Part shown: positions 23,986-44,757 of the stretch, piece after piece | How the letters are laid out: each line of letters begins with the position of its first letter | Numbering within the stretch: position 1 is the stretch's first letter | Notes under the pieces: generated by a model | Seen by the model: only the letters and a program-made list of their open reading frames with translations | Database searches by the model: none | Told to the model about the DNA's origin: nothing | Program-made: the position numbers and the translations under genes | From: Patescibacteria group bacterium | GTDB lineage: Bacteria > Patescibacteriota > Patescibacteriia > UBA9570 | Length of the DNA stretch: 64,000 nucleotides | Direction: 5' to 3' | NCBI GenBank assembly: GCA_041665365.1 | Contig: JBAYIY010000006.1 | Location: 19,602-83,601, forward strand

Positions 23986-24040
23986 CCATGTGTTCCATGC
24001 AGTGGACGAATAATATTCGTCCACTGCATGGAACACATGG
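23986..24040. repeat. Family-B palindrome, 55 bp perfect (CCATGTGTTCCATGCAGTGGACGAATA-A-TATTCGTCCACTGCATGGAACACATGG)
   Basis: Read directly. Immediately upstream of RAYT copy 2. Confidence 0.9.
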
Positions 24041-24115
24041 TTACACACATGCATCCACACAATTTTATCAAACATACGTTACCATATCCCCCATTATTGT
24101 TCCACGTGGAACAAT

Positions 24116-24750
24116 TTGACAGCACCGTGTTTCTACGATACATTCACCAAAGAAAAGCGCCCGCCTATTTGGGGCGTTTTTATGTATCAACCAAAAATCA
24201 GAAAACAATTACGCCTTAATGGTTATGATTATTCATCATCTGGTTGTTATTTTATTACGATTTGCACTCGTTTTATGCAACATTGGTTTGGTGAAATTAA
24301 TAATCGTAAGATGAATCTCAATACATATGGAAAAATTGCACACAACTATTGGCTCGAAATTCCAAAACATTATACAAATGTTTCAATTGATGAATTTGTC
24401 ATCATGCCGAATCACATACATGGAATCATTGTCATTAAACCGTCGGTTAACGAACGAATTGGAGGAGTGGACGAATAATATTCGTCCACTCCTCCAATTC
24501 GTTCGTCCATCAATGTTGCCCGCACATGTACATCCACAACATATAATTCCGCATCCCCGAATTACGGATTAATATCCAAAATTGTAAAATCATACAAACA
24601 TGTTGTCACACGAACAATGAAATTAACGAACTCATGTGCGCAATTTTCCTGGCAACGCTCATATTACGATGATATTATCAGAAATGACCACCATTTTAAT
24701 AATGTTCGTAAATACATCCATAACAACCCAATTAAATGGAAACATTAATT
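24116..24750 (+). pseudogene. IS200/RAYT-like HuH-Y1 transposase, copy 2, disrupted by a palindrome-borne stop and a frameshift
   Basis: N-terminal part YFITICT...FVIMPNHIHGII ends at a TAA inside the family-B palindrome 24450..24506. Homology to copy 1 continues in another frame (SMLPAHVHPQHII) and then a third frame (SKIVKSYKHVVTR...RSYYDDIIRNDHHFNNVRKYIHNNP). Confidence 0.6.
24450..24506. repeat. Family-B palindrome, 57 bp perfect (ACGAACGAATTGGAGGAGTGGACGAATA-A-TATTCGTCCACTCCTCCAATTCGTTCGT)
   Basis: Read directly. Lies at the same relative position (after the KPS motif) as the palindrome inside RAYT copy 1. Confidence 0.9.
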
Positions 24751-24806
24751 CTTTGTGGATTTATTCACCGAAGCTCACTGACGCCGAAGGCTAAGGTGAA
24801 CGAAGG

Positions 24807-24879
24807 TGGACCTGAGCGGACTCGAACCGCTTACCTCAGCAATGCGAATGCTGCGCTCTACCAGATGAGCTACAGGCCC
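24807..24879 (-). tRNA. tRNA-Ala (CGC)
   Basis: Reverse complement gggcctgtagctcatctggtagagcgcagcattCGCattgctg...ggttcgagtcc...caggtcca; G3:U70 pair present. Confidence 0.75.
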
Positions 24880-24885
24880 AAATAA

Positions 24886-24959
24886 GTGGACCGACGGGGA
24901 TTCGAACCCCGGACCTTTCCCATGCCATGGGAACGCTCTACCAACTGAGCTATCGGCCC
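24886..24959 (-). tRNA. tRNA-Ala (GGC)
   Basis: Reverse complement gggccgatagctcagttggtagagcgttcccatGGCatgggaa...ggttcgaatcc...tcggtcca; G3:U70. Confidence 0.7.
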
Positions 24960-24960
24960 T

Positions 24961-25030
24961 TAAGCGAAACAATCTACCAACTGCCTGTCCGCCAAAGCTC
25001 GAGTCTTCGAGAGCGTCGGCGGAAGCTATC
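24961..25030 (-). pseudogene. tRNA-derived fragments (scrambled partial tRNA-Ala-like segments)
   Basis: Contains ggggccgatagct and cagttggtag pieces matching the adjacent tRNA-Ala. No complete cloverleaf. Confidence 0.35.
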
Positions 25031-25109
25031 GGCCCCTACAAAAAGGATCATTTATCTAAACCTTGAGGACTATATACCAACTTACTAAAAAGATCAAATG
25101 TACTGCCTG

Positions 25110-25181
25110 TGCCCCAGAAGAGAATCGAACTCCCATCTCTCCCTTAGGACGGGATTGCTCTATCCATTGAGCTACTGAGGC
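25110..25181 (-). tRNA. tRNA-Arg (CCT)
   Basis: Reverse complement gcctcagtagctcaatggatagagc...tccc gtCCTaa ggga...gggagttcgattctc...ctggggca. Confidence 0.65.
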
Positions 25182-25417
25182 TAATATTAGAATATTAATT
25201 GCGTCGCAAAACTATTCTAGGAAATTAACCTATGAAATAAGTCTTTTGAAAACTGCCCTAATACATTTGTCTTACTGTCATACACGTATAACCCAACGAC
25301 ACTGCTTAAGACAATCGTCAAAATTATTGTGTAGACCACTAGATCTTTTTTCATTGCCCTATTCTAGCAATGTTATGCACAGTAGACAACGTCTCTAGAT
25401 TAAGATATACAGAACAC

Positions 25418-25789
25418 ATGTCTAAATTTTTTAATAATAATGAAGTTGATATGGATGCACAACCTAGTACCGTCATCGGTGATGGCGTCAAAGTCGAAGG
25501 AAAATTTACTGGTAACGGCCCCATCACAGTTCTGGGTGAGGTTGTTGGCACCTTAAGTACAAAAGATGATTTGTTAGTTGAAGACAGCGCCAGAATAGAG
25601 GCCGATGTTGAAGCCAACAATATCACTTTAGCGGGTGAAATTAAAGGTAATGTTTTATGCCATGGAAAATTGCATATTATGGCGTCTGGAAAAGTTTTTG
25701 GCGATGTCACAACCAATATTTTATCCGTAGAAACTGGAGCTATTTTGAAAGGTCAATGTACTACTGGTGCAGATAGCCAAACTGCTTAG
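25418..25789 (+). CDS. Bactofilin family cytoskeletal protein
   Basis: Beta-helical repeat pattern VIGDGVKVEGKFTGNGPITVLGEVVGTL...ITLAGEIKGNV...GKVFGDVTT typical of the bactofilin (DUF583) domain. Confidence 0.65.
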   Translation: MSKFFNNNEVDMDAQPSTVIGDGVKVEGKFTGNGPITVLGEVVGTLSTKDDLLVEDSARIEADVEANNITLAGEIKGNVLCHGKLHIMASGKVFGDVTTNILSVETGAILKGQCTTGADSQTA

Positions 25790-25794
25790 GAATT

Positions 25795-26517
25795 ATGTTC
25801 TTTTATCTGTACGATAATTTCGTACTTGATAAAAAATATACCGGGATCTTGGATCACATGGAAGCTAGGGTGATTGAGCTTGGTATTAACGGCCGGGTTG
25901 AGAAGCTGTTGCCTTTGCGCAACATGAAGGAGTTGATTGAACACGGTATCAAACAAGGTGCTCATACTGTTGTAGTAGTTGGTAATGACCACACTTTTTT
26001 ACGCGCCTTACAAGTGGTGGCCCAGTATGATTGCAGTATGGGATTTTTACCCTTTGGTGAAACTAAGCTCGGTGCCTGGTTCGGGGTAACTGATGCACTT
26101 GATGGTTGTGATACATTATCGCGCCGCATTACTAAACAACTCCCACTCGGCAAAGCTAATCAAATATATTTCTTAATCACTGCTACAGCAATATTGCCAA
26201 TAAACACCCAGCTAATGTGCAATAATAAATGGACAATCAGTACTCAAACTGAGGCAGTTGCTTGCTCAATTACAATATTTGATCAAACGCATATTAAGTT
26301 GTTTATTAAACCGATCGGCCAAACTGGGGGATTGTTCCGAAAAGCCAAGACCTATCATCCCACCGAGCTGGTGGTTGAACGCCTAGCCTTGGAGCACCCT
26401 GGACAATCTCTGCCCGTTACATTAGATGGTGTCACCGTTGTCAAAACTCCAGTAATAATAACAGCTAAACCTAAGGCTATAAAAGTTATCGTTGGCAAGC
26501 ACCGTCAATTGACATAA
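25795..26517 (+). CDS. Hypothetical protein with degenerate diacylglycerol-kinase/NAD-kinase-like catalytic domain
   Basis: HTVVVVGNDHTF at the position of the GGDGT motif. Confidence 0.35.
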   Translation: MFFYLYDNFVLDKKYTGILDHMEARVIELGINGRVEKLLPLRNMKELIEHGIKQGAHTVVVVGNDHTFLRALQVVAQYDCSMGFLPFGETKLGAWFGVTDALDGCDTLSRRITKQLPLGKANQIYFLITATAILPINTQLMCNNKWTISTQTEAVACSITIFDQTHIKLFIKPIGQTGGLFRKAKTYHPTELVVERLALEHPGQSLPVTLDGVTVVKTPVIITAKPKAIKVIVGKHRQLT

Positions 26518-26546
26518 GCGCCTAAAATCGCTAGAGTAAGCCGACT

Positions 26547-28538
26547 ATGAATGTATCAGAAATCATTCGGGAGTTGAAGATGAATAAAGATGAATTTTTT
26601 CCGCTGGCGGTACAGCTTGGTTTTGATATTGGTGAACGTGCCATCAAGGTAGACGATCAAGTGGCTATTAAGCTTATTACCGCTATTAAAGGCCACCGCA
26701 AACAACAACAACGTAAAAGTTTATTTGCGCACGAAGAAAAGACAGAGGTTAAGACAGATTTAGCCACAGACACTGCCCGTGTCTTAGAGGTACCTGACCC
26801 CATTACAACCAAACAATTTGCTGATCTATTACACAAACCAGTCACCGATGTTATCAGTGTATTATTGCGTAATGGCATCATGGCAACAATTAATGAAAAT
26901 TTGGATTTTGTCACAGCTACAATTATTGCGGAAGATTTTGGCTACACCACACAAAAAGTTGCTTCCACCACGAATGCTCTTGAATTAGGCCGTGAAGAAC
27001 GCCTAAAAACTGCTCTAGCAGCCGATATTCAATCTAATTTACAATCCCGCCCACCAGTCATTGTTGTCATGGGTCATGTTGATCATGGTAAAACCACCTT
27101 GCTCGATGCCATTCGAAAAACCAACATTGCTGGCCATGAAGCTGGGGGAATCACTCAAACAATTGGCGCTTATCAAATTGATTACAAAGACCGTAGTATT
27201 ACTTTCATAGATACCCCGGGTCATGAGGCTTTTACCGCCATGCGCTCGCGTGGTGCCAATGTGGCCGATGTCGCTATTCTAGTGGTCGCAGCCGATGATG
27301 GTATGAAACCACAAACTATCGAAGCCATTGCTATATTAGAAAAAGCCAACCTGCCTTTTGTGGTGGCCATCAATAAAATGGATAAATCAGGGGCTGATAT
27401 TGAACGCGTAAAAAAGGAATTGTCGGAAGTTAATTTAGTACCGGAAGATTGGGGTGGAAAAACTATTTGTGTCCCAATTTCTGCAAAAACCAACCAACAT
27501 ATTGATGAATTGCTCGACATGGTGTTGCTCGTGGCCGACATGAATCAAACTAAACTACAAGCCAACCCAAATCGCAGTGCCGTCGGAACGATTATTGAAT
27601 CACGGGTTGATAAAGATTCTGGGGCTGTAGCTACTGTTCTGATTCAAACCGGCACTTTACATATTGGCGATATTGTTGAAGTTGGTGAGGTGGTTGGTAA
27701 AATCAAAGCCCTTTCTTCCTGGCGTGGTACCCCTTTGAAAACAGCCGTCCCATCTACGCCGGTAAGATTTTTGGGTTTAAAAAATGCTCCTGTAGTTGGT
27801 GATATATTAACCATTTGTACCGATCCTAAAGCTCTTAAACGGAAACAAAAAAAATCATACCAGAGTTTTGCCTACTCCCATCATAAAGCTGAAATTAATC
27901 AAACCGATAAACCCCGCTTATCCATTATCGTGAAGGCTGATACCCACGGTTCACTGGAAGCTCTGATTGGTGCTATTGATAAACTGTGTTTCAAAGATGT
28001 CACAGTTGATATTGTAAAACGCGGTTTAGGCGACGTTACAGAAAAAGATATCGATCAGGCAGTGGCTAGCAAAGCACGACTGATTGGTTTTAATGTTTCC
28101 ACCACAGCAGCGGCCGCTGCTTATGCGCTCGGCACACAAACAACCATTCAACATTTTACAGTTATTTATAAATTGCTCGAGTACATTGAACAAGAACTAC
28201 AAAATTTATTACCACCGGATATTTCGTATAATAAACTGGGTGAAGTGAAATTGTTAGCTATTTTCCGCGTCACCGGTAAGCATGCCATTGTTGGCGGCAA
28301 GGTTCAATCTGGTAGTATTCAACAAAGAGCCATTTGCAAAATTGTCCGGGCTAGTGCCACAGTGGGAGAGGCGACTATTACTCAATTACAAAGTAATAAA
28401 AAAGATGTCGCTGCCGTAGACAACGGTACTGAGTGTGGTCTAAAACTTGATACCACCATTACGCCTCTGGTTGGAGACATCGTTGAGGCCTACACCACTA
28501 GTGAAAAACCACGCGCTTTAGAAAAAATCATTGCTTAG
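26547..28538 (+). CDS. infB: Translation initiation factor IF-2
   Basis: 663 aa; G-domain VVMGHVDHGKTTLLD, DTPGHEAF, NKMD. Confidence 0.95.
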   Translation: MNVSEIIRELKMNKDEFFPLAVQLGFDIGERAIKVDDQVAIKLITAIKGHRKQQQRKSLFAHEEKTEVKTDLATDTARVLEVPDPITTKQFADLLHKPVTDVISVLLRNGIMATINENLDFVTATIIAEDFGYTTQKVASTTNALELGREERLKTALAADIQSNLQSRPPVIVVMGHVDHGKTTLLDAIRKTNIAGHEAGGITQTIGAYQIDYKDRSITFIDTPGHEAFTAMRSRGANVADVAILVVAADDGMKPQTIEAIAILEKANLPFVVAINKMDKSGADIERVKKELSEVNLVPEDWGGKTICVPISAKTNQHIDELLDMVLLVADMNQTKLQANPNRSAVGTIIESRVDKDSGAVATVLIQTGTLHIGDIVEVGEVVGKIKALSSWRGTPLKTAVPSTPVRFLGLKNAPVVGDILTICTDPKALKRKQKKSYQSFAYSHHKAEINQTDKPRLSIIVKADTHGSLEALIGAIDKLCFKDVTVDIVKRGLGDVTEKDIDQAVASKARLIGFNVSTTAAAAAYALGTQTTIQHFTVIYKLLEYIEQELQNLLPPDISYNKLGEVKLLAIFRVTGKHAIVGGKVQSGSIQQRAICKIVRASATVGEATITQLQSNKKDVAAVDNGTECGLKLDTTITPLVGDIVEAYTTSEKPRALEKIIA

Positions 28539-28541
28539 TTT

Positions 28542-28886
28542 ATGCCAAAACAACGCATGCGCCAAATCAATACCCAGCTGCGTGATTATTTCGCCACGGC
28601 TATTATGCGCTTAATTGAATTCCCTCAGGGTGTCGTAGTTAGCGTTACTAAAGTCCACACCACCGCTGATTTACATTACTGCACCGTGTATGTTTCGGTT
28701 GTTCCGGATAGTCAATCAGGTTCAACTTTACAACTGATTAAACGTCACTTGGTTGACCTAGTTGATGATGTGGCAGCTCGAATTACTTTTCGATCAGTGC
28801 CGCATTTTCGCTTTGTCCTAGATGACACAGAGAGGAAAGCCGTTCCCATTGAACAATTACTTGACAGCCTGCTTGAAACCCAGTAA
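28542..28886 (+). CDS. rbfA: Ribosome-binding factor A
   Basis: 114 aa, KH-like RbfA pattern; directly downstream of infB. Confidence 0.8.
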   Translation: MPKQRMRQINTQLRDYFATAIMRLIEFPQGVVVSVTKVHTTADLHYCTVYVSVVPDSQSGSTLQLIKRHLVDLVDDVAARITFRSVPHFRFVLDDTERKAVPIEQLLDSLLETQ

Positions 28887-28897
28887 GGTAGCGCGTT

Positions 28898-29875
28898 ATG
28901 TTTAACGCCATCCACACTGAAATTATTACAGCACTACAACAAGCCAACCATGTGTTGATTATCTCGCATCGCAAACCGGATGGAGATACGATTGGGGCCG
29001 GTCTGGCTATTCGTCATTACTGTCACTCCCTAAATAAACCGGTCCAAAACTATTGTCTTGATCCAGCGGCTGATTATTTTCATTTTTTGCCCGAAGCCAA
29101 TACTTTAGGCCCACAAAATAATGTCTGGCTAGATAAATCTATTGATGTAATTGTAGTAGTTGATGCTGGTGATTTAGGTTACGCTGGTGTCGCCGAACAG
29201 ATTGCCGGACTACCTCAGAAATATACTTTAATAAATATTGATCACCATGTTACCAATACTAACTTTGGTCAAATAAATTTAGTTGCTAGTACGGCTTCCT
29301 CAGCTTGTGAGGTGGTTTATCATCTTTTAGAAAGTGTCCGTGCGATTGACCATACCATTGCCACTTGTTTGCTAACTGGATTAATTACTGACACAGGAAA
29401 TTTAACCAATCTTGCTACAACTGCTAGTGCGGTACAAGTCGCTTCGAGGCTTGTTTCTAAAGGAGCTAATCTAGCACACATTACAAAACAGGCTTTGAAC
29501 CATCGTACCTATACCACCCTAAAATTATGGGGCAGGGCTCTCCAACGTCTACATGAAGATGCAAAAACAGGCATGGTTGTAACAACGTTGACTTTAGAAG
29601 ATTTACTTGACTGCCAAGCTGATGATGAAGACATCTCGGGCATCTCCAATTTTTTAAATGGCCTGGATCAATCTGCTGATAAGGCCATATTGGTACTTGT
29701 CCAAACGGCGCCTGATGTGATTAAAGGTAGTTTGCGCACCACTAATCCTTTACTCGACGTGACTGAGTTTGCTAAGCTCTATGGTGGTGGCGGCCATAAA
29801 AAAGCGGCCGGCTTCACCACTAGCGGAACGTTAACATTAACTCCAACTGGTTATGCCATCACCCCAAGCAATTAA
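28898..29875 (+). CDS. nrnA: DHH-family phosphoesterase (NrnA-like oligoribonuclease / pAp phosphatase)
   Basis: [14 protein letters not shown] (DHH motif I), NIDHH (motif III), GGGH C-terminal DHHA1 motif. Confidence 0.8.
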
Positions 29876-30446
29876 CCTAATACCGTCAGTTATTGAAAAA
29901 TCCTTTGACGGTGAACGCGTCTATGATATTTATTCACGCCTACTAAAAGATCGCATTATATTTCTCGGTACCACCATTGACGATATGGTGGCCAATAGCA
30001 TTATTGCTCAATTATTATTCTTAGAATCACAAGATGCCAAGCAAGACGTTACCTTATATATCCACTCACCCGGTGGTTATGTCACAGCTGGTTTGGCTAT
30101 CTACGATACCATGCAGTACATAAAATGCGATGTCTCTACTGTGGTGATTGGTACGGCCGCTTCCATGGCCGCTTTACTCTTAGCTGGTGGTGCGACAGGT
30201 AAACGTTATTCCTTACCAAATGCCGAAATAATGATTCATCAACCATTGGGTGGGGCTGAAGGGCAGGCCTCCGACATAAAGATTCGCGCTGAACATATTT
30301 TGCGCACGCGCGATCGTCTAAACAAGATTTTAGCTAAACACACACAGCAAGAATTGAAACGAATCGAGGTTGATACTGATCGGGATAAGTTCATGAGCGC
30401 CGAAGAAGCCAAGAAATACGGCATTATTGACAAAGTGATTACTTAG
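29853..30446 (+). CDS. clpP: ATP-dependent Clp protease proteolytic subunit
   Basis: [25 protein letters not shown] (catalytic Ser), MIHQP (His). Confidence 0.9.
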
Positions 30447-30525
30447 CTGATAAGGTAGATTTGTCGGGCGTGTCTGGTTCCGCGACGACATTGCTTAATT
30501 CGAACCCAACCTTAGGAAAAAATTT

Positions 30526-32070
30526 ATGTCCCTATCCATACTGGGCCCAATTATTCTGGGTCTAATAGTGTTCGTGGTGGCCGTTGTTGTTGGCGGCCTA
30601 ATCGGTTACTGGTACCGTAAACAAGTAGCCGCTAAAACAACTAGCTCGGCCGAGGCCAAGGCTGAAACTATCATGCAAGACGCTAAACAAAAGGCGCAGT
30701 CTTTTTTGTTAGAGGCTAAAGATAAAGGCTTGAAAATTTTAGATGATTCCAAGCGCGAAGAAAATGAGCGCCGTCAAGAAGTGACCGCTGCCCAACGCCG
30801 CCTGGAGAAACGTGAAAGCATGTTTGATGAAAAACTGTTGGATTTAGAAAATAAACACACCAAATTACAAGATAAAGCCAAAGAATTGGAAAAACTCAAA
30901 GAAGATATCAATACTGTTAAAACCGAACAAGTGGCCCGCTTAGAAAAAGTGGCCGGAATGAATCGGGCTCAGGCGGTACAACTACTGGAAAAACGCGTGG
31001 AAGAGCAATCTAAAGAAGCCTTATTATCGCGTTTACGTAAAATGGAAGAACAGGGTAGTGAGGAACTGGAGCGTAAAGCCAATGAACTAATGTCGGTGAT
31101 TATCCAACGCTGTTCTACCAGTCATGCCACCGACACAACGACTACCTCAGTTCATCTTACTAGTGACGATATGAAGGGACGCATCATTGGTAAAGAAGGG
31201 CGCAATATTAAACGCATCGAGGAATTAACCGGCGTAGAGATATTAATCGATGATACCCCGCAAACTATTGTTGTCTCTGGCTTTTCCCCAATTCGTCGCC
31301 ATCTAGCCAAGCGCGCTTTGGAAATGCTGATGGAAGACGGTCGTATTCATCCGGCTAGAATTGAAGACTGCGTCGAACGAGCCAAACGAGATTTAGCTAT
31401 CGATATTAAAAAGGCTGGTGAAGATGCTTTATATGAAGTCGGTGTAACTGGCTTCGATCCAAAATTGGTATCTATTTTAGGCCGTTTAAAATATCGCACA
31501 TCTTTTGGACAAAATGTGTTACGCCATTCAATTGAAGTGTCTTTTTTAGCTGCGATGTTAGCCGAACATCTTGGCGCTGATGTCAATGTGGCACGTAAAG
31601 GTGGTTTGTTGCATGATATTGGTAAATCAGTTGATCATGAAGTGCAGGGAACCCATCCTGAAATCGGTCGTGATATTGCCAAAAAATTTGGTCTCACTGA
31701 TGCGGTTATTGCACCAATTCTCTATCACCACGATGATTATCCACCCACTCTTGAGGCTGTGATTGTGAAAGCCGCTGATGCTATTTCTGGTTCGCGCCCC
31801 GGTGCCCGTAAAGATACTTATGAAAATTATATCCAACGTTTGGAAGAACTAGAAAATGTCGCTTTAACTTTCCCTGGTATTGATAAAGTGTATGCTATTC
31901 AAGCTGGTCGAGAAGTGCGCGTGTTTGTACGCCCAGATCAAGTGGATGATTACACCGCCAATAAATTAGCCCGTGATATTGCTCTAAAAATTGAGCAAGA
32001 ACTCAAATACCCCGGTGAAATCCGTGTGACAGTAATTCGTGAAACCAGAGTGGTTGAATACGCTCGTTAA
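30526..32070 (+). CDS. rny: Ribonuclease Y
   Basis: N-terminal TM, coiled coil, KH domain (GRIIGKEGRNIKRIE), HD domain (LLHDIGK). Confidence 0.9.
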   Translation: MSLSILGPIILGLIVFVVAVVVGGLIGYWYRKQVAAKTTSSAEAKAETIMQDAKQKAQSFLLEAKDKGLKILDDSKREENERRQEVTAAQRRLEKRESMFDEKLLDLENKHTKLQDKAKELEKLKEDINTVKTEQVARLEKVAGMNRAQAVQLLEKRVEEQSKEALLSRLRKMEEQGSEELERKANELMSVIIQRCSTSHATDTTTTSVHLTSDDMKGRIIGKEGRNIKRIEELTGVEILIDDTPQTIVVSGFSPIRRHLAKRALEMLMEDGRIHPARIEDCVERAKRDLAIDIKKAGEDALYEVGVTGFDPKLVSILGRLKYRTSFGQNVLRHSIEVSFLAAMLAEHLGADVNVARKGGLLHDIGKSVDHEVQGTHPEIGRDIAKKFGLTDAVIAPILYHHDDYPPTLEAVIVKAADAISGSRPGARKDTYENYIQRLEELENVALTFPGIDKVYAIQAGREVRVFVRPDQVDDYTANKLARDIALKIEQELKYPGEIRVTVIRETRVVEYAR

Positions 32071-32073
32071 ATC

Positions 32074-32877
32074 ATGGAGCCATTACGTTTACTCTATATC
32101 GGTGATGTCGTTGGCAAGGCCGGTCGTCGCGCCGTTCAGACATTAGTGCCGAGCTTACGTCATGAACTCAAACTTGATGCTGTATTCATGAATGCCGAAA
32201 ATATGGCGCACGGTAATGGTGTGTCACATACCACAGTTGAAGACATGTTGACCGCTGGCGTAACTTTTTTTACGTCTGGTAATCATGTGTTTGATAATAA
32301 AGATGGGGTAGAATATTTGAAACGATCCGATAGTAAAGTGTTACGCCCGGCCAATTATCCAGCAGTGGCTCCAGGACGAGGACATACTGTCATTGAAATA
32401 GGCACTAAAAAAGTTTTGTTAATTAACCTGGCCGGACAAGTGTTTATGCCCCAACAAGTTGATAGCCCGTTTTATTGTCTGGATAATATTCTCAAACAAT
32501 ATAAATTAGATGATCTAGCCGCCGTGATTGTTGATGTTCATGCTGAAGCCACCAGTGAAAAACAAGCTCTGGCCTGGTATGCCGATGGTCGCGCCTCACT
32601 GGTAGTTGGTACTCATACTCACGTACCAACGGCCGATCTCCGTATTTTAACGCACGGCACTGGTCTGGTGTGTGATCTTGGTTCAGTCGCCGCAGCTGAT
32701 TCAGTGATTGGAGCCGATAAACATAAAGTGCTACAAAGATTCTTAACCCAAACACCCATTGCTCTTAGTCCAGCTGAAACCGGCGAGGTTATTTTTAATT
32801 CGGTCTATATTGAAATCGATCCTACCACAAAACACACTGTACAATTACAACGGGTTGATCGTATACTACCGGCATGA
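32074..32877 (+). CDS. ymdB: YmdB-like metallophosphoesterase (TIGR00282 family)
   Basis: MEPLRLLYIGDVVGKAGR...GNHVFD pattern; conserved rny-ymdB adjacency. Confidence 0.8.
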   Translation: MEPLRLLYIGDVVGKAGRRAVQTLVPSLRHELKLDAVFMNAENMAHGNGVSHTTVEDMLTAGVTFFTSGNHVFDNKDGVEYLKRSDSKVLRPANYPAVAPGRGHTVIEIGTKKVLLINLAGQVFMPQQVDSPFYCLDNILKQYKLDDLAAVIVDVHAEATSEKQALAWYADGRASLVVGTHTHVPTADLRILTHGTGLVCDLGSVAAADSVIGADKHKVLQRFLTQTPIALSPAETGEVIFNSVYIEIDPTTKHTVQLQRVDRILPA

Positions 32878-33152: not shown

Positions 33153-33174
33153 TTTTTGTAATACCGTCTATAAA

Positions 33175-33718: not shown

Positions 33719-33863
33719 ACGTTTGTTTCATGTATATCTCTATTATATACATTAAGTTGGGTGGTGTCAAATCCATTTTTTTGGTATTTTCAACGTATAG
33801 CCAGCCCCAAGACAGGTTACCCAACGGAATACTTCACCGGAGGGAAACAAATAGATATTGTAT

Positions 33864-34717: not shown

Positions 34718-34727
34718 TTGTTTTTTG

Positions 34728-35906: not shown

Positions 35907-35925
35907 ATGTTTATACTAATATATC

Positions 35926-36384
35926 ATGAAAAAAGTCGTTTGTCAATCATCTAGCGCTGGTGTTACTCACGCTTTTGCAGAAAAATTAGTGGCTAACCTC
36001 GCACACGGAGGTTTAGTTTTGCTCAGTGGGGAGCTAGGTGCCGGTAAAACCACCTTCGTACAAGGCATTGCCCAGGCTTTACACATCGATCGCTCCATAA
36101 CGAGCCCAACCTTTACACTAATGAATGTATATGAGACTTCTCATCTAATCATTCGCCAGCTTGTTCATATTGATCTTTATCGTTTGTCAGACAATGCAGA
36201 ACTAACCACGCTTGATATTCCAACTTGGCTAAGCAATCCGGCCGCTTTAGTTATTATAGAATGGCCAGAACGAGCCCCAGACTTATGGTCAAATGCTCTG
36301 GGTACAATTCAGTTTGGTTTGGGAGACACAGTCAATCAACGAACTCTAACTATGACTGGGTCACTGGCGGCTTATTTTGCCTGA
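35926..36384 (+). CDS. tsaE: tRNA threonylcarbamoyladenosine biosynthesis protein TsaE
   Basis: LLSGELGAGKTTFVQGIAQAL P-loop and SPTFTL motif. Confidence 0.8.
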   Translation: MKKVVCQSSSAGVTHAFAEKLVANLAHGGLVLLSGELGAGKTTFVQGIAQALHIDRSITSPTFTLMNVYETSHLIIRQLVHIDLYRLSDNAELTTLDIPTWLSNPAALVIIEWPERAPDLWSNALGTIQFGLGDTVNQRTLTMTGSLAAYFA

Positions 36385-37150
36385 AAAAATACAGTTGTTG
36401 TACGATGCTAAATAACGTTGAAGTCAACCAATACAGTGCCAAGCCAGCCGGAAACTGATAGCCAAAAATGGTCGTCATAATTGGCATCATATACATCATT
36501 TGTTTGTTTATACTAGCGGCCATATCTTCATCTTTACTGCCTTCGGTTTTAATAACCGGCCGCTTCGCTTGCATCATACGAATTTGCACAAAAGTGGCTA
36601 ACCCGGTTAACCCGGCAAATATGACATTTTTTGATTGCGCTAAATCTACTATACCGAAAAAGGACATGTTTATAGAGGTTGTGGTGTAAATATCACGTAG
36701 AAAGCCATACAGATGATTAACTTGCTCCACATTGAGCAGGTGAGTGGTCGGATCGATTTGTAAACCGTGCAAAAAGGCTTGGTATAAAGCAATTAAGATA
36801 GGTAATTGTATGATTAATGGTAAACAAGACGAAAACGGATTAACTTTATTATCTTTGTAGAACTGCATGAGTTGCTTGCCCAACTCTTCTTTATTATCTT
36901 TGTATTTCTCGCGAATGGCATTTATTTTTGGTTGTGTTTCTTGCAACTTCTTTTGTGATTTTAAAGCAGAAAAAGCTGGCCAAAATAATAATGATTTAAT
37001 GACTAATGTTAATACAATAATGGCCACACCCATATCGTGACCGGGCAAAAAATAATACAGCCACATCAAGGCATTAAAAATTGGTTCGTATAATATTGTG
37101 TTGTAGAGTTGTCCAAGCATATAATATTTATGGTACTGGGTCGTAACCAC
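36350..37150 (-). CDS. yidC: Membrane protein insertase YidC (short form)
   Basis: 266 aa polytopic protein in the rpmH-rnpA-yidD-yidC context. Confidence 0.8.
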
Positions 37151-37382
37151 CCGAAGTGAATGGGGTACAACGCAATATTCGTTTACTGCCTAAATAGGTG
37201 CCCTTGATTATGCCATAGCGCTCTACGGCTGTATAGGCATACTCCGAACAGCTTGGTTTAAAACGACACCCCATCAAAGTTAGCCCTCTAAGCAAGCCAT
37301 GATCTGGAGAAATGGTCTTTTGATATAGTCTAATTACCCACAATAATGCATGTCTAGGCCATAATCTAACTAATTCAATCAT
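37128..37382 (-). CDS. yidD: Membrane protein insertion efficiency factor YidD
   Basis: 84 aa; GC.F.PSCS.YA motif. Confidence 0.8.
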
Positions 37383-37678
37383 AATAGCTGCAATTTATGA
37401 AATACTTGATTTATGGCTATGGAAAATTCTTTCGCGGCCACACCAACGGCTTTCTGTTTTACTACCACCACTACATCGTATGGTTTTTTGTGAAGTTTCC
37501 GAATAATGGCTCTTAGTTGTCTCTTTATACGATTACGCACTACAGCATGTTTATGGACTTGTTTTGATACTACCACAGTAAATTGAGGCTCGGTTGAAGC
37601 TAGAGCGTGTAAACGAAAAAAGGGGTGGTGAGCCACGACGCCTTTTTTATACACGGCTTGGATATCCCGATTTTTCAC
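37379..37678 (-). CDS. rnpA: Ribonuclease P protein component
   Basis: 99 aa basic protein, [10 protein letters not shown] motif. Confidence 0.85.
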
Positions 37679-37685
37679 GGTAAAA

Positions 37686-37826
37686 TTATTGCGCTAGACG
37701 CTTCCGACCTTTGCGGCGGCGGCTGACCAAAATCTTTCGTCCACTGGGAGTGCCTGATCTTTTTCGGAAACCATGTTCCTTAGTACGAGTCCGTTTTTTG
37801 GGTTGATAGGTTCGTTTAGTTGACAT
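37686..37826 (-). CDS. rpmH: 50S ribosomal protein L34
   Basis: Not in the ORF track (46 aa). Reverse translation [23 protein letters not shown]...GRKRLAQ. Confidence 0.9.
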
Positions 37827-37883
37827 AGCGGCACTATACACAGTTTCTCCACATGCTGTCAACAGTGTCTTGGTTTACATAGT

Positions 37884-39284
37884 GTGGTAGGATATCGGCC
37901 TATGAATTCCACACAACTCTGGGAAGCCTGCATGGCAGAACTTGAACTCACTCTAACCAAGGCCAATTTTACGACCTGGTTCAAACATACTTTTATTGTT
38001 GAATATAACGATCAATCTGTCACGGTGGGAGTACCTAGTGGTTTTATTAAAACCTGGATTGAAAATAAATACCATCACAGTATTTTAAAGTCATTGCAAA
38101 AAATTACTGATGGGAAGATAAAGCAGATTCTCTACAAAGTAGCGCCATTTAGTAAGCGCGAAGTGGTTAGCTTGCCTGAGGCTGCTCCACAAACACCGGT
38201 GGTACCTCCGGTAGTTCAACCATCCAAACCTGTTATTGCGCCTACTGCTACACCTCCAAAACAGGCCGAAATAAATGCGCGCTATACTTTTGATACCTTT
38301 GTGGTTGGCAAGAAAACCGAGTTAGCCTATGCGGCTTGTCGCGCAGTTAGTGAGAGCCCGGCCACGATTTATAACCCGTTGTTTATATATGGTGGAGTTG
38401 GTCTAGGAAAAACTCATTTAATGCAAGCTGTCGGCAATGCTATTCTACAGAAATTCTCCAATAAACGTGTGCTATATACTCCTTGTGAAACCTTCACTAA
38501 TGAATTTATTAAATCAGTTAAAGCGGGTCAACCGGATACATTTACGAACAAATACCGATCAGTTGATGTTTTACTGGTTGATGATATTCAGTTCTTGGCC
38601 GGTAAAGAGGGTACACAAGAAGCTTTTTTCCATACCTTCAATTTCTTACACCAAAACAATAAACAGATTGTGATTAGCTCTGATCGCCCTCCTAAAGCCA
38701 TTCCAACCTTGGAAGATCGTTTGGTGTCACGCTTTGAGTGGGGAATGATCGTTGATGTTGGTGCACCGGATTTAGAAACTCGGATTGCTATTTTGCAAAC
38801 CAAGTGCCAGGAAAAAAACATTCAGTTAGCCGACGATATCGTCCAATACATTGCCAGTGTGATTCAAAACAACATTAGAGAGCTTGAAGGCGCTTTAAAT
38901 CGTGTTATGGCTGCCACTCAGTTGACTAATACCAAACCAACGGTTGATAGTGTAAAGGGTCTACTGTCCTCCTTAGTACAAGCCCCCAAACATGGTGCTA
39001 TTACCACAAAACAAGTCCTCCTGGCAGTAGCTGAGTATTACACAGTAGCAGTTTCTTTACTTACTAGTAGCTCACGCAAAAAAGAATTGGTTTTCCCCAG
39101 ACAAATAGCCATGTTTATTATGCGCGAAGAAATGAATGCATCATATCCTGCTATTGGTGAAGAATTAGGAGGGCGCGATCACACCACAGCGATGCATGCT
39201 TATAACAAAATAAAACAAGATATGGAATTAAATGAGAAATTAGTACAAGACATTACTTTAATTAGACAAAAACTTTATTTATAA
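37884..39284 (+). CDS. dnaA: Chromosomal replication initiator protein DnaA
   Basis: AAA+ Walker A GGVGLGKTHLMQA, DDIQFLAGKE, C-terminal DnaA-box-binding domain. True start may be an internal Met. Confidence 0.95.
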   Translation: MVGYRPMNSTQLWEACMAELELTLTKANFTTWFKHTFIVEYNDQSVTVGVPSGFIKTWIENKYHHSILKSLQKITDGKIKQILYKVAPFSKREVVSLPEAAPQTPVVPPVVQPSKPVIAPTATPPKQAEINARYTFDTFVVGKKTELAYAACRAVSESPATIYNPLFIYGGVGLGKTHLMQAVGNAILQKFSNKRVLYTPCETFTNEFIKSVKAGQPDTFTNKYRSVDVLLVDDIQFLAGKEGTQEAFFHTFNFLHQNNKQIVISSDRPPKAIPTLEDRLVSRFEWGMIVDVGAPDLETRIAILQTKCQEKNIQLADDIVQYIASVIQNNIRELEGALNRVMAATQLTNTKPTVDSVKGLLSSLVQAPKHGAITTKQVLLAVAEYYTVAVSLLTSSSRKKELVFPRQIAMFIMREEMNASYPAIGEELGGRDHTTAMHAYNKIKQDMELNEKLVQDITLIRQKLYL

Positions 39285-39505
39285 CCTGCGGATAAGTTGT
39301 GCAGTGAGTGTGTGTGAAAAGTGTAATAAATTAAGCGGTAAAATTCATCCACTGGACATGCACAACTCTACACACAGTCTATTCCATCAACCAAGCAACA
39401 TATAATTCAACTATGTTAACACTAACTACCATTATCCACTTATTAACACCCCTTATTATTGTTATTATCTATTTATTTATATAATTTAATTAAGATACAG
39501 ATGTT
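39285..39505. promoter_or_regulatory. Candidate oriC (DnaA-box-like motifs plus AT-rich unwinding element) between dnaA and dnaN
   Basis: TTATCCACT, TCATCCACT and TTATCCGCA (as tgcggataa) box-like 9-mers, and the AT-rich stretch tattattgttattatctatttatttatataatttaatt. Confidence 0.5.
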
Positions 39506-40609
39506 ATGAAATTTTCCTGCACCCAAGAAAATTTAAAGCACGGCCTACTCATCGTCAGTCGAGTAGCTAATAAAAATGCGAACTTACCTATCCTGCAAAA
39601 TGTTTTAATTAAAGCCCAGGACAATAAAATAGTTTTAGCCGCTACTAATTTAGAAATTGGTGTCCAAGCAACATTGCGTGCCAAGGTGGACACTGATGGA
39701 TCATTTACATTACCAGCGCAACTATTTAGTAATTATGTAGCTTTATTAACAACTGAGAAGATTGATTGTGAATTACAGCAAAACGAATTAAGGGTCACAG
39801 CTAATGGCCAGGCTACAGTATTAAAAGGAGAGGGTGCGGGCGACTTTCCAATTCTACCAACCGTGGAAGGTGGGCAACATTATTCTCTAGTACGAGGTGA
39901 TTTAGAGGTGGCTTTGCAACAGACCATTTTAGCAGCCGCCATTGATGAAACCCGCCCAGAGATCGCCGGGATTTGTTTAATGTTCAGCGATAAAAATTTA
40001 AAGCTAGCAGCAACCGATAGCTATCGTCTCGCGGAAAGAACGGCGCCTTTAACACAGGTGGGGGAGAGTATGAAAATAATTCTACCACAACGCTCGGCGC
40101 ATGAATTATTACGCTTAATACAATTCATTCAAATAGAAACAGTTGATTTATTTGTCACTGAAACACAAATTGCTTGTCGGTTGGGTGAAGTTGAGTTTAT
40201 CTCTAGATTAATCGAAGGAAAGTTTCCTGATTACGAACAGATTATTCCTAAAGCCGGACAAACTACGGTGAGTTTAGATAAGAATGATCTAATGAAAGCA
40301 GTTAAAGGAGCAGCCTTGTTTAGTAAAACTGGAGTAAATGATATCAATTTGACCTTTAATGCCACCGATCAAACATTGCAAATAAAGGCAGTTAATACCC
40401 AACTCGGGCAAAACGTTACTACCTTACCAGCTCAGGTGGCAGGCGATGATGTGACTATAGTGTTTAATTACCGCTTCTTACTGGATGGGCTGCAATGTTT
40501 AATTGGTAATGAGGTGATTTGTTTATTAAATGGTCAACTTAGCCCGGCGTTAATAAAAGGTGGAAGTGACGATCTGTTTAATTATATTATCATGCCAATT
40601 AAGCAGTGA
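39506..40609 (+). CDS. dnaN: DNA polymerase III subunit beta
   Basis: 367 aa, three-domain sliding-clamp pattern; follows dnaA. Confidence 0.9.
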   Translation: MKFSCTQENLKHGLLIVSRVANKNANLPILQNVLIKAQDNKIVLAATNLEIGVQATLRAKVDTDGSFTLPAQLFSNYVALLTTEKIDCELQQNELRVTANGQATVLKGEGAGDFPILPTVEGGQHYSLVRGDLEVALQQTILAAAIDETRPEIAGICLMFSDKNLKLAATDSYRLAERTAPLTQVGESMKIILPQRSAHELLRLIQFIQIETVDLFVTETQIACRLGEVEFISRLIEGKFPDYEQIIPKAGQTTVSLDKNDLMKAVKGAALFSKTGVNDINLTFNATDQTLQIKAVNTQLGQNVTTLPAQVAGDDVTIVFNYRFLLDGLQCLIGNEVICLLNGQLSPALIKGGSDDLFNYIIMPIKQ

Positions 40610-40902
40610 TGCAGGCCATTTCAAAACAAGACATTCTCAAGCGTCTTAACCAGGCTGGAGTGGCTAACACGGTGCAAGCTGCCATGGTGGTTGAAGCCTT
40701 TCAGCTATATTTGGCCAGTGAATTTCCAGATATTAATGCTAATGATTGCACGCCGTTATTTGTTCAAGGTGGTGTGCTAGTAGTGCGCTCAACTCATCCA
40801 GAATTAATGCACTGTTTACGCGATCGTCAGACCGATATCTGTGAATATGTTTTAAAAACCACTGGAAAAATTATTACGCGCCTACAATTTCGCACGAGTT
40901 AA
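40606..40902 (+). CDS. DUF721-like small protein (possible DciA-type helicase loader)
   Basis: 98 aa, translationally coupled to dnaN. Size and position match the DUF721/DciA genes common next to dnaA-dnaN. Confidence 0.4.
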   Translation: MMQAISKQDILKRLNQAGVANTVQAAMVVEAFQLYLASEFPDINANDCTPLFVQGGVLVVRSTHPELMHCLRDRQTDICEYVLKTTGKIITRLQFRTS

Positions 40903-43559
40903 TTGCCAGCATTTTTATTGCCGTTCGTGTTTTTATTTGTATTGCTGTTCTTATTGCTAGGTGAGTTGGTATTATTGGAGTTTGAATTTTTGTTACTGTT
41001 TGTATTACTATTATTTGTGTTAGTGTTGGTGCTACCAACACTGTAAGAAAACGACACGGTACTGGAAGTAACATTATCACGGTCGTTTGTTACGCGAACT
41101 GTTAATGAATGATTACCAGTGGTCAGAGAGGTTGGTACATAAGTGCTGGTAAAAGGTTGACTGGTTTTAGTATCAACTGGAATATTATCAATAATATATT
41201 CAACTTTTTTTATACTGCGATTTGTGCCCGGATTAATTCTAGCCGCCAATAAAAATGTTTTGCTAGTCAGTTTATCTCCACTAGCCGGAGAAATTATAGT
41301 AACAGTAGGGCTTTGATCAGCCGAGCGGAGATTACAATCTTCATATTCGGTTTTTTCTGTAATATAATCTGACTGTCCTTCCGCCCAGGCTTGAATAGCC
41401 TTTTCCCAAGATGAATACATTGGATCACTCTCTGGTTTGTCTGGTGCGGAACCAAGTGGGTCTTCTTTGCGCAGATACTGTAAGATGGTGTGTACTTCTT
41501 TAAACTCTTTCTTGACTTTAAACTCGGCTGGATATGTGTTCACACAACTATCTGGAATAATATGTTGTGTACCCTTATCAACATATTTTTCAACTGTCTC
41601 ACCAATTGCGCCGCTTAAAACTGGCTTGTTAGCCTTAACCGCATCTGGGGCGGTAAAAGATTCATTCGGTAAACCCTCAAGAATCCGACTCATGTAGTCA
41701 TTGGCAATTGGGGCGGCAATGATAACACCATCAGCCATATAATCCATCGCGTCATTATTGTTATTACCCGTCCAAATACCCGTGGCAAACGACGGTGTAT
41801 ACATTAATGTCCAAGCATCATGAAAATCTTGACTGGTGCCGGTTTTACCAGCAATCGTTTTTCCAGATATATTTAAAGCCGAAAAACCAGAGCGCGCGCC
41901 TTGGTCGGTTAAAACACTATTCAATTGTTTAACGGCATTTTTATCAACCACTTGAGAAGCAGAGTCGGTCCATTCATATAACACCTTACCAGTGCGATCT
42001 TCTACTTTTAAAATACTGGCTGTGGGATGGCGCTCACCTTCTCGAGCAAAGGTGGCAAAAGCCGAGGTGTGTTCTAATAATTTTACTTCACCACTCCCTA
42101 GCGCTAAAGCCAAACCATAAGTATCGCGATTTCCCAATGTGGTATAACCAAGACTATCGGCGGTATCGAGCACTTTATCTTTGCCAACCAAGTAGAGAGT
42201 TTTAACGGCAGGGATATTGAGAGATTGCCCCAAAGCGCGACGCATAGTAGTAGGACCAGAAGTACCCATACTGAAATTATGTGGGTGATAATTACCGCTT
42301 TCAGTTGGAAAATCAGTTTCTACATCAAACAAAGCAGTATTAGGATTGTAACCATTGGCAAAGGCGGTGGTATAGACAATAGGCTTAAAGGAAGAACCAG
42401 GTTGGCGCAGGCTGGTAGCGACATTAACTTGTCCATCATAATCAGCAGCATAATAATCTTTTGAACCAACCATGGCTAATATTTGACCCGTCTTGGCATC
42501 AAGAGAAACTAACGCGGCGTTGCTACCACCATATTTTTCAACCTTGACCATACCATCGGTAATAACCTGTTCAGCAATGGCCTGTTTATCATAATCCAGG
42601 GTGGTGGTTACTTTGAGACCTTGATTGATAAAGTTACTGCCAAAATCATCTTCTAGTTGGGTGATAACATAATCAACAAAATGTGGGGCATCTTTTTTGG
42701 CGGCGGTTTGCTTAATATCAACTGGTTCAAGCTTAGCGGCATCAGCCTGTTCTAGGGTGATGTATCCTTCCTCGGCCATACGCTCTAAAGTGAAATCTTT
42801 CCGTTCCAACAAAGCCTCCATTCCAGAATCAATTCGGCTGGGTTTTTGTGGTATGGCTGCCAAAAAAGCCGCTTGAGCCAAAGTCAGGTCAGCCGGACTC
42901 TTTTCAAAATAACTTTGGGCGCCAGCGGCCACGCCTAAATTTATACCACCATAAGACGCTTCGTTTAAATAAAATTCCAAAATCTGATCTTTACTGTATT
43001 TACGTTCTACCTCGATAGCCAAAATAAGCTCTTTTATTTTTCGCGACAGGCTTGATTCGTTACCAACAATAGCTAATTTAACAAATTGTTGAGTGATAGT
43101 TGATCCACCAACGCGACGTTCTGAAGATAAGGTAATGCCGGCGGAGCGGAGCAAAGCCAATGGGTCAAAACCGTGATGATTGTAAAAATTCTTATCCTCC
43201 AAGGCCACCGTCGCCTGTTTGAGATAAGGTGAAATAGCATCAATTTTTGTATAGGTGCGCCGGACGTCACGACCGGTTTCATAGAGCATGTGTTCACCAC
43301 TGCGATCGTAGATTTTTGTACTCTCAGCAATCACGCGATTTTGTAATTCTTCAGTACTGGGTAGATCTTTGGCAAAATAGGCAAATACAGCGATGCCGGC
43401 TATCACCACCAAGGCTGTACCAATTAGTCCAATTAATACTAAACGTTTTAACCATTTTTTCCAGTTTTTCTTCACGTGTCCCTTAAATCCCTCTCGGCGT
43501 TTACTGGGGTGTGTTTTATCCATAGATAAAACACACTGTAGCAGAAAATGAGCGATCAT
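40899..43559 (-). CDS. Class A penicillin-binding protein (PBP1A; transglycosylase + transpeptidase) with C-terminal Ig-like region and N/S/T-rich low-complexity tail
   Basis: GT51 motif EDKNFYNHHGFD, transpeptidase SSFKP / SLN / KTGTS, C-terminal TNTNTNNSNTNSNKNSNSNNTNS. Confidence 0.85.
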   Translation of the reverse strand: MIAHFLLQCVLSMDKTHPSKRREGFKGHVKKNWKKWLKRLVLIGLIGTALVVIAGIAVFAYFAKDLPSTEELQNRVIAESTKIYDRSGEHMLYETGRDVRRTYTKIDAISPYLKQATVALEDKNFYNHHGFDPLALLRSAGITLSSERRVGGSTITQQFVKLAIVGNESSLSRKIKELILAIEVERKYSKDQILEFYLNEASYGGINLGVAAGAQSYFEKSPADLTLAQAAFLAAIPQKPSRIDSGMEALLERKDFTLERMAEEGYITLEQADAAKLEPVDIKQTAAKKDAPHFVDYVITQLEDDFGSNFINQGLKVTTTLDYDKQAIAEQVITDGMVKVEKYGGSNAALVSLDAKTGQILAMVGSKDYYAADYDGQVNVATSLRQPGSSFKPIVYTTAFANGYNPNTALFDVETDFPTESGNYHPHNFSMGTSGPTTMRRALGQSLNIPAVKTLYLVGKDKVLDTADSLGYTTLGNRDTYGLALALGSGEVKLLEHTSAFATFAREGERHPTASILKVEDRTGKVLYEWTDSASQVVDKNAVKQLNSVLTDQGARSGFSALNISGKTIAGKTGTSQDFHDAWTLMYTPSFATGIWTGNNNNDAMDYMADGVIIAAPIANDYMSRILEGLPNESFTAPDAVKANKPVLSGAIGETVEKYVDKGTQHIIPDSCVNTYPAEFKVKKEFKEVHTILQYLRKEDPLGSAPDKPESDPMYSSWEKAIQAWAEGQSDYITEKTEYEDCNLRSADQSPTVTIISPASGDKLTSKTFLLAARINPGTNRSIKKVEYIIDNIPVDTKTSQPFTSTYVPTSLTTGNHSLTVRVTNDRDNVTSSTVSFSYSVGSTNTNTNNSNTNSNKNSNSNNTNSPSNKNSNTNKNTNGNKNAGN

Positions 43560-43573
43560 GCTAGTGTAATATT

Positions 43574-44740
43574 ATGGACATATTATTAGAAAGAGGCGTT
43601 GATACAATTTACCCATCACTAAAAAAACTCAAAGAAAAACTGGCCACTGGCGATAAACTTACCCTATATTTAGGAGTGGATCCAACCGGGGCATTATTAC
43701 ACATCGGTCATACAATACCTTTACGAAAACTAGCTCAATTTCAACAGGCGGGGCACAAAGTGATTTTATTAATGGGCGACTTTACGGCCGTTATTGGGGA
43801 TCCGACTGGGAAAGATAAAACCCGTGTTCCTCTAACATCAGGGCAGATTTTAAAAAATGCCGAAACCTATAAAGAGCAAGCCAGTAAAATTTTAGATTTT
43901 AATCACCCAATCAATCCAGTTGAAATTCGTTATAACAGTACCTGGTTGGCCAAACTTACTTTCACTGAGGTTATAAAACTGGCCGCACATTTTACCGTGC
44001 AACAAATGTTAGAACGAGACATGTTTGAACGGCGCATTAAACATGGGCAGCCCATTTCACTGCATGAGTTTTTGTATCCTTTGATGCAGGGTTATGATTC
44101 TGTGGCGATGGATGTTGATTTAGAAGTTGGTGGGACAGATCAAACGTTTAATATGTTGGCCGGAAGAACTTTACAACGCGAAATCAATCAACGGGAAAAA
44201 TTTGTTATCACCGTGCCGTTATTGGCTGATGCCAATGGAGTAAAAATCGGCAAGTCAGAAGGTAATGTGATTGCCATTACGGCTAAACCGGCCGATTTAT
44301 ATGGCAAAATTATGGCTTTAGGTGACGATGTAGTAGAACAGTGTTTTGAATTATGCACCGATCTACCCATGACTGAAATTAAACAAATTGTTCAAGGCAA
44401 TCCGAAACAAGCCAAGATGAGATTAGCTCGTGAAATTGTTACTATTTATCATTCAGCTGAAGCCGCGGCGCAAGCTGAACAGGAATTTAACACAGTGTTT
44501 TCCAAACACGGTAAACCGAGTGACATACCAAACAAATTAATTCCAAACACTACTGAGCCACCGGCGATACTTGTGGAACTAGCTCTGGCCGAAAATAAAT
44601 CTGCGGCGAAACGATTATTTGAACAAGGGGGAGTAAAAATAAATGATCAAAAAATAACCGATTGGAAAAAACCGTTAGTGTTAAAATCCGGCGATGTGAT
44701 TCAAGTTGGAAAAAGAAATTTTATCGCAGTGTACGAATAA
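43574..44740 (+). CDS. tyrS: Tyrosine--tRNA ligase
   Basis: HIGH (LHIGHTIPL) and KMSKS-like (KIGKSEG) motifs, C-terminal S4 domain. Last five codons and the stop lie in a family-B palindrome. Confidence 0.9.
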   Translation: MDILLERGVDTIYPSLKKLKEKLATGDKLTLYLGVDPTGALLHIGHTIPLRKLAQFQQAGHKVILLMGDFTAVIGDPTGKDKTRVPLTSGQILKNAETYKEQASKILDFNHPINPVEIRYNSTWLAKLTFTEVIKLAAHFTVQQMLERDMFERRIKHGQPISLHEFLYPLMQGYDSVAMDVDLEVGGTDQTFNMLAGRTLQREINQREKFVITVPLLADANGVKIGKSEGNVIAITAKPADLYGKIMALGDDVVEQCFELCTDLPMTEIKQIVQGNPKQAKMRLAREIVTIYHSAEAAAQAEQEFNTVFSKHGKPSDIPNKLIPNTTEPPAILVELALAENKSAAKRLFEQGGVKINDQKITDWKKPLVLKSGDVIQVGKRNFIAVYE

Positions 44741-44757
44741 TATTCGTACACTGCGAT
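44723..44757. repeat. Family-B palindrome, short copy (ATCGCAGTGTACGAATA-A-TATTCGTACACTGCGAT)
   Basis: Between convergent tyrS and galT; supplies the tyrS stop codon. Confidence 0.85.

Follow-up and report, generated by a model that had tools for sequence, protein, structure and literature searches.

We analysed three palindromes in a 64,000-nucleotide stretch of DNA (the window) from a Patescibacteria group bacterium (GenBank assembly GCA_041665365.1, contig JBAYIY010000006.1, positions 19,602 to 83,601 of the forward strand). On the evidence of their sequences, they are very probably low-copy, double-foot (GT[AG]G...C[TC]AC) repetitive extragenic palindromes (REPs) with a cognate REP-associated tyrosine transposase (RAYT; TnpA_REP subclass 2.4, or group 4), that is, a REPtron in a Kerfeldbacteria-like Patescibacteria genome. 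The family comprises a REP upstream of the transposase gene, a second REP lying in frame inside that gene after the HUH motif, and one dispersed REP between tyrS and galT (copies 1, 2 and 3, respectively, in Table 1). The original prediction had recognised the palindromes, which proved real, but it had overlooked the transposase gene that holds copy 2 and is flanked by copy 1. Only one of the three copies is dispersed because the other two belong to this gene.

Table 1. Features of the putative REPtron, of the paralogous RAYT gene and of the tyrS/galT junction, in coordinates of the window.
Feature	Position	Strand	Description
REP copy 1	23986-24040	none	perfect 27+1+27 (55 bp) palindrome
Terminator-like hairpin AAAAGCGCCC...GGGCGTTTTT	24153-24181	+	adjoins the transposase ATG
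tnpA_REP / RAYT gene, putative subclass 2.4 type	24182-24757	+	motifs NHIH, WQ, YIHNNP; Pfam, NCBIfam and homologue matches
REP copy 2	24450-24506	none	perfect 28+1+28 (57 bp) palindrome, 19 codons, inside the transposase open reading frame
In-frame TAA	24476-24478	+	third base is the unpaired centre of copy 2
tyrS	43574-44740	+	ends ...GKRNFIAVYE*; relatives ...GKRNFVELS/Y*
REP copy 3	44723-44757	none	perfect 17+1+17 (35 bp) palindrome at the tyrS/galT junction
galT-like gene	44758-45723	-	ends ...HL*; relatives ...HLSL* or ...HLSI*
Paralogous intact RAYT gene	16057-16683	-	37% identical; motifs DHMH, WQ, YIYNNP; same layout with the other palindrome family (GTAGAGAC...)
In-gene REP of paralog	16357-16410	none	perfect 27+27 (54 bp), core GTAGAGACGCGATT/AATCGCGTCTCTAC
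Upstream REP of paralog	16774-16831	none	perfect 29+29 (58 bp), same core, different outer arms

The window carries two palindrome families, family 1 (GTAGAGAC...) and the one treated here, family 2, which is formed by copies 1 to 3. All three copies lie where they had been reported, and their common 15-nt centre ACGAATAATATTCGT (ACGAATA-A-TATTCGT) occurs exactly three times against 0.30 expected, with none of 100 shuffles reaching three. Some details of the earlier description needed adjustment. The two long copies are perfect, as claimed, but only copy 2 (57 bp) exceeds the 55 bp ascribed to both, copy 1 being exactly 55 bp long. Similarly, the 15-nt centre is indeed shared by all three, but the 23-nt core GTGGACGAATA-A-TATTCGTCCAC is identical in copies 1 and 2 only, copy 3 having the feet GTGT/ACAC. 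The core of copy 1 reads GTGG-ACGAATA-A-TATTCGT-CCAC, with 16 more paired bases outside the feet, and both copy 1 and copy 2 have the double-foot form, i.e., a 5' GT[AG]G near the hairpin foot with its 3' complement C[TC]AC. As single-stranded DNA (ssDNA), all three copies are predicted to fold into hairpins with 3-nt loops and perfect arms, with energies of -32.4, -33.4 and -17.7 kcal/mol for copies 1, 2 and 3, respectively (z-scores against shuffles of -14, -14.7 and -9.2). Copy 1, situated between divergent genes, ends 141 nt before the transposase ATG and is the 5' flanking REP of the gene. Assembly artefacts were ruled out because region and encoded open reading frames (ORFs) recur identically across independent assemblies: the stretch with copies 1 and 2 has, in the part covered, 100% identity to two Logan assemblies, the 98-aa N-terminal ORF ending at the in-gene TAA is identical in NCBI, JGI and Logan records, and the TyrS protein of the window is recorded in JGI. 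A larger repeat unit, made of the REP plus its flank, was also rejected, since the flanks of copies 1 and 2, like those of the family-1 pair, aligned locally no better than shuffles (p = 0.06 to 0.77).

The ORF around copy 2 translates, in one frame throughout and with a single TAA, as a 188-codon protein resembling Y1/HUH transposases. Pfam Y1_Tnp matches this protein (E 3e-8; 34 bits against a cut-off of 23), and the best NCBIfam model for both this gene and its paralog is NF047646, REP-associated tyrosine transposase (60.7 and 46.2 bits), the IS200 model giving 22 and 20 bits. Quentin et al. 2018 (BMC Genomics 19:475, PMC6006769) gave the motifs NH[IFV]H, WQ and YIxNNP for TnpA_REP subclass 2.4, the same as RAYT group 4 in Bertels et al. 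2017 (PMC5581495), and these are matched by NHIH, WQ and YIHNNP of the family-2 protein. The same authors reported that subclass 2.4 REPs include double-foot forms (5' GT[AG]G and 3' C[TC]AC) flanking tnpA_REP, and described as "a remarkable and unique feature" that REPs are inserted within tnpA_REP genes between HuH and Y, with the frame undisturbed (PMC6006769). Copy 2 has this very position, as it starts 8 codons past the HUH-motif histidines, within a hypervariable linker; an in-gene REP in the variable post-HUH linker is the hallmark of subclass 2.4. The flanking REP, the GT[AG]G/C[TC]AC ends and the spread over many phyla are likewise shared with the published REPtrons. Together, the motifs and the homologues from the same phyla argue for placing the gene in this subclass. 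A promoter-like site is present at 24116-24144, and a cluster of two tRNA-Ala genes and one tRNA-Arg gene (24805-25181, minus strand) begins 48 nt past the stop codon of the transposase gene, on the opposite strand.

The homologues display the same arrangement. The family-2 protein has 459 of them, the best intact one sharing 49% identity, and the source records of several carry the name 'REP element-mobilizing transposase RayT'. Their alignment contains a hypervariable insert directly after the HUH motif, in which GTAG-headed palindromes emerge on back-translation of peptides such as VGTEHCSVPT and VETLHCNVST. Of 80 homologue loci sampled from named genomes across many phyla, 52 have a perfect palindrome (arms of at least 10 nt, at most 220 nt past the HUH motif), versus 21 of 480 control windows. 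A GTAG foot occurs in 38 of the 52, in two reading frames but never in the frame that reads the TAG stop. In nine of the 52, an exact further copy precedes the ATG by no more than 500 nt (seven lie at -49 to -100), and in about seven one is found just beyond the stop codon. The post-HUH linker of some subclass 2.4 genes (homologues P0011 and P0039; loci L003, L021, L033 and L019) also shows tandem expansions, for example VGTEQCIAAN five times over or a GNGGG run, consisting of half-palindromes or short repeats; the linker region is therefore mutationally dynamic.

In the family-2 gene, the frame is preserved across copy 2, yet the loop codon is TAA, which the complementary centre base would turn into TAT (Tyr). 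All catalytic motifs are intact, and the frame is the same on either side of the TAA, while stop codons in the post-HUH segment were found at none of the 80 homologue loci. The Logan assembly has the same centre base, and no polymorphism at this base was seen across assemblies, which are all identical but are consensus sequences from which minor variants could escape. Reassignment of TAA in the genetic code was ruled out, as TyrS terminates, close to its native C-terminus, at an identical TAA in an identical core context. With the rest of the ORF and its motifs intact, no stop among the homologues, and the stop-bearing version in every recorded assembly, we infer that the gene is probably a recent pseudogene, its transposase being presumably off at present through the TAA at the hairpin centre. 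Such a state fits the single dispersed copy.

The coincidence of the TAA with the unpaired centre base, whose complement gives Tyr, in an otherwise intact ORF raises the question of whether the upstream and in-gene REPs are instead a control device, by which the enzyme would regulate itself via its own gene, or by which flipping or re-copying of the palindrome would toggle TAA (off) and TAT (on). The conservation of the in-gene position across phyla, and the identity of upstream and in-gene cores in both paralogs, would also suit such a device. But a toggle is at odds with a stop-bearing version that is base-identical in Logan and whose ORF recurs in NCBI, JGI and Logan records, and with the lack of any stop in this region of the homologues; moreover, the passive account that only a permissive loop tolerates insertions (Quentin et al.) suffices for the conserved position. 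We therefore regard the control device as very improbable. Slightly less probable still is the specific proposal of a self-acting TAA/TAT switch or, more broadly, of a cis-regulatory self-control cassette formed by the upstream and in-gene pair of subclass 2.4. Such a switch might be operated by processing of a cruciform, by template switching, or by the intact paralog exchanging strands between the upstream copy and the in-gene one.

The same layout is repeated in the paralogous RAYT gene with family-1 palindromes. Its in-gene REP follows the HUH motif, in frame as ...SGRDAINRVSTRG... and without a stop, and its upstream REP lies about 90 nt before the annotated ATG. The paralog has the motifs DHMH, WQ and YIYNNP, and the in-gene REP feature is fully present. 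A near-identical hairpin with a T-run (GAAAAGCGCC...GGGGCGTTTT-ATG) is found at the start codons of both RAYT genes (24153-24181 on the plus strand and 16668-16710 on the minus strand), despite the 37% protein identity. A possible role of this hairpin is to insulate or dampen expression of the transposase. As a family-wide feature it was ruled out, with one occurrence among 76 homologues versus five among 311 controls, and it is specific to the two paralogs here.

Other observations concern the surroundings of the paralog and the remaining palindromes of the window. A GC-rich island (17000-18750, about 63% GC versus a background of about 42%), with a class I/II aminotransferase ORF (17106-18560, plus strand), lies next to the paralogous gene, is flanked by family-1 REP-like palindromes at 16774-16831 and 18783-18846, and looks like horizontally acquired DNA. 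Dispersed GTAGAGAC-footed palindromes are present at 13625-13644, 18783-18846, 19468-19515, 20778-20817, 53590-53651 and 54113-54140, most of them at the 3' ends of genes or in the gap between convergent ones. Their inner stems are ATGCCATGGCAT or GTTG...CAAC, as opposed to GCGATT/AATCGC in the pair of the paralogous gene, and other RAYT genes of the genome may be the ones to which they belong. A third palindrome type, AAATATCTGTAGTA-g-TACTACAGATATTT with internal GTAG/CTAC, is located at 57409-57437 within a gene cluster resembling type IV secretion system (T4SS) pilin genes.

In both RAYT genes, the upstream and in-gene copies share the core only; their outer arms differ, yet each is perfectly symmetric. 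The four transposase-associated copies of the two families have 13-17 paired bases outside the feet, and the tyrS copy has 6; in homologue REPs (n = 38), the number of paired bases beyond the feet is typically 0-2, with a maximum of 11. Long, copy-specific, perfect outer arms of this kind cannot be produced by independent point mutation. A further indication comes from JGI metagenome contig L084 (41% GC), which carries a perfect intergenic 24+1+24 palindrome at 2150-2200. Its outer arms and those of copy 1 are alike except for substitutions and one indel, which are mirrored in both arms, each palindrome being perfectly symmetric. The mirrored indel points to a symmetrising process, and we infer that such a process, e.g., replication template switching within quasi-palindromes, would best explain the symmetry of the outer arms. 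Template switching of this kind is an established source of mutations.

Copy 3 encodes ATC GCA GTG TAC GAA TAA (I-A-V-Y-E-stop of TyrS), and the galT ORF ends at the base directly after it, so that the palindrome constitutes the entire spacer to the convergent galT. The earlier claim that this copy supplies the last five codons and the stop of tyrS and separates it from galT thus holds. In the comparison of tyrS 3' ends that had been suggested with it, the palindrome is absent from the relatives, which have native ends (Table 1). TyrS relatives, of which the closest named ones are from Candidatus Kerfeldbacteria (Patescibacteria), are 75-78% identical, and the similarity ends within one codon of the first base of copy 3. 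Compared with the window, the relatives' C-termini are 4 codons longer for tyrS and 2 codons longer for galT. The relatives keep the tyrS-galT synteny with a spacing of 0.46-1.9 kb, and no palindrome of at least 10 nt was found in this interval. What lies in this interval varies in the lineage: in L090-L093 it is a DUF218 gene, a 189-aa ORF of unknown nature, a 463-bp spacer without called genes, or a Fic gene accompanied by a second ORF, all of which are missing from the window.

Judging from this comparison, in the lineage of the window a 35-bp REP replaces the native ends of tyrS and galT and all the DNA between them. The REP probably inserted between the two genes, with the surrounding DNA subsequently deleted as far as selection allows; a REP-associated deletion is the alternative. 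The copy is presumably a relic that survived genome streamlining, probably kept because it is the source of the tyrS stop codon and of a 3' hairpin shared by both transcripts. Comparable sites have been described among GTAG-tagged REPs, for which Di Nocera et al. 2013 (PMC3733652) reported convergent-gene REPs within 20 bp of both ORF ends, REP termini that often provide stop codons, and in-frame intragenic REPs, tRNA synthetase genes included.

Several observations weigh against the REPtron interpretation. Within the 76 kb of ENA contig k141_139995 (87.6 kb, containing the window) that were scanned for family-2 copies, there are three copies, two of them at the transposase gene, and no further one. 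Classic REPs have tens to hundreds of copies per genome. No REP or half copy was detected downstream of the transposase gene in a search allowing at most one mismatch. The NF047646 scores of 60.7 and 46.2 bits are under the equivalog cut-off of 80. The foot of copy 3 is GTGT, not GT[AG]G, and the proposed terminator role of this copy is backed by a consensus scan on the galT strand only. In addition, the stem ACGAATA, with G/C at two of its first four bases and 29% GC, fails the rule used in the search of Quentin et al. (at least three of the first four stem bases G/C, or a stem of at least 50% GC), although this rule is a search-tool criterion and not a biological definition of a REP.

The original prediction had held that absence of the core from the rest of the genome could reduce the palindromes to coincidental local hairpins. 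The result on this point is weak, the 76 kb having yielded no more copies and the JGI metagenome contigs two, both perfect, intergenic and in other organisms: the palindrome of L084 and, on a second contig (34% GC), a 14+1+14 palindrome with the family-2 core. Viral contigs had no family-2 palindromes. The family is nevertheless identified whatever its copy number, because of its association with the transposase gene, and is real but nearly extinct or very small.

The low copy number, together with the site of copy 3 between convergent genes and its terminator-like score on the galT strand, would also be expected if these were ordinary, independently evolved hairpins (intrinsic terminators or mRNA 3' stabilisers) that are alike by chance. 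However, an identical core of 15-23 nt is present three times against 0.3 expected, copy 2 is part of a coding sequence, and copy 1, flanked by divergent genes, has nothing to terminate. No T-run follows copy 1 or copy 2, neither of which was called by the terminator scan, and the RAYT gene association and the GT[AG]G feet are specific. This very unlikely explanation is effectively refuted, and the view that the palindromes form a genuine family distinct from ordinary terminators is upheld.

Least probable, and to an equal degree, are an operator and an insertion sequence. For an operator, bound by a dimeric regulator with no link to transposition, speak the 23-bp perfect dyad, typical of operators, and the site of copy 1 in a divergent promoter region, but the other two copies are in coding sequence and at two 3' ends, the perfect extension to 55-57 bp is not operator-like, and the pattern across homologues links such palindromes to the transposase ORF itself. 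Likewise, although IS200 TnpA is a relative of this Y1 HUH enzyme, an autonomous IS200/IS605-type insertion sequence with subterminal hairpins, or a miniature inverted-repeat transposable element derived from one, is opposed by IS200 model scores of about 20-22 bits versus a cut-off of 55, by the location of the second hairpin in the gene and not at a right end, with none downstream, by the lack of flank similarity past the palindrome, and by a gene that is single-copy in 76 kb, the paralogs being just 37% identical.

In contrast to the published subclass 2.4 REPtrons, which keep the frame open, a stop codon lies at the loop of the in-gene REP. The stem is AT-rich and the feet are buried in a long perfect stem, no downstream flanking REP and only one dispersed copy were seen, and the host belongs to the Patescibacteria (Candidate Phyla Radiation, CPR). 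Our literature search found no paper mentioning both RAYT and Patescibacteria. With the GTAG-tagged REPs (Di Nocera et al., PMC3733652; Nunvar et al. 2010, PMC2817692), family 2 shares the short GT[AG]G-tagged palindrome, the convergent-gene 3' sites, the supply of stop codons and the in-frame intragenic copies. It differs from them in that the stop comes from the TAA of the hairpin loop and not from the TAG of the GTAG tag, the copy number is far under the typical figure of at least 100, and the tag forms part of a long, perfectly paired stem where theirs is an unpaired 5' tail.

The TnpA_REP/REP system of Escherichia coli (bacterial interspersed mosaic elements, BIME; Messing et al. 2012, PMC3479197; PMC8266576) likewise has an HUH/Y1 enzyme encoded beside its cognate REPs, and recognition of a folded ssDNA hairpin and a GTAG-type motif is presumably common to both. 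The E. coli enzyme, which has been characterised biochemically, belongs to subclass 2.2, however, and the palindromes of its REPs are imperfect and bulged, none of them lying in the gene. Perfect palindromes were reported by Corneloup et al. 2021 (PMC8266576) as a second REP group, and the same paper describes in vitro processing of single-stranded REPs by the cognate enzyme. The resemblance to IS200/IS605 lies in a related catalytic fold (Pfam Y1_Tnp) and in chemistry reliant on ssDNA hairpins, but there is no multi-copy autonomous element here and the motif is YIxNNP, compared with Y[IV]ENQ of subclass 1.1 in the table of Quentin et al. Once the family is recognised as REPs, every feature that was first found striking has a precedent.

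By analogy with the enzymes of E. coli, Stenotrophomonas maltophilia and Marinomonas, the transposase would bind the folded single-stranded hairpin together with GT[AG]G, and would then cleave and rejoin ssDNA beside the hairpin. In those systems, such cleavage and rejoining is thought to spread REP copies, which last mainly downstream of genes.

The findings leave the current understanding of REP/RAYT systems unchanged. They extend to a streamlined Patescibacteria genome an architecture that is published but little known, in which the REP sits within the gene of its own transposase, and they explain both palindrome families of the window together, as REPs with their RAYT genes. REP-finding rules that demand a GC-rich stem would miss AT-rich families such as this one. 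The tyrS/galT junction is a clean case of two convergent essential genes whose native ends have given way to a REP, which also supplies a stop codon, and the stop at the hairpin centre, along with the long, copy-specific symmetric arms, bears on how palindromes are maintained.

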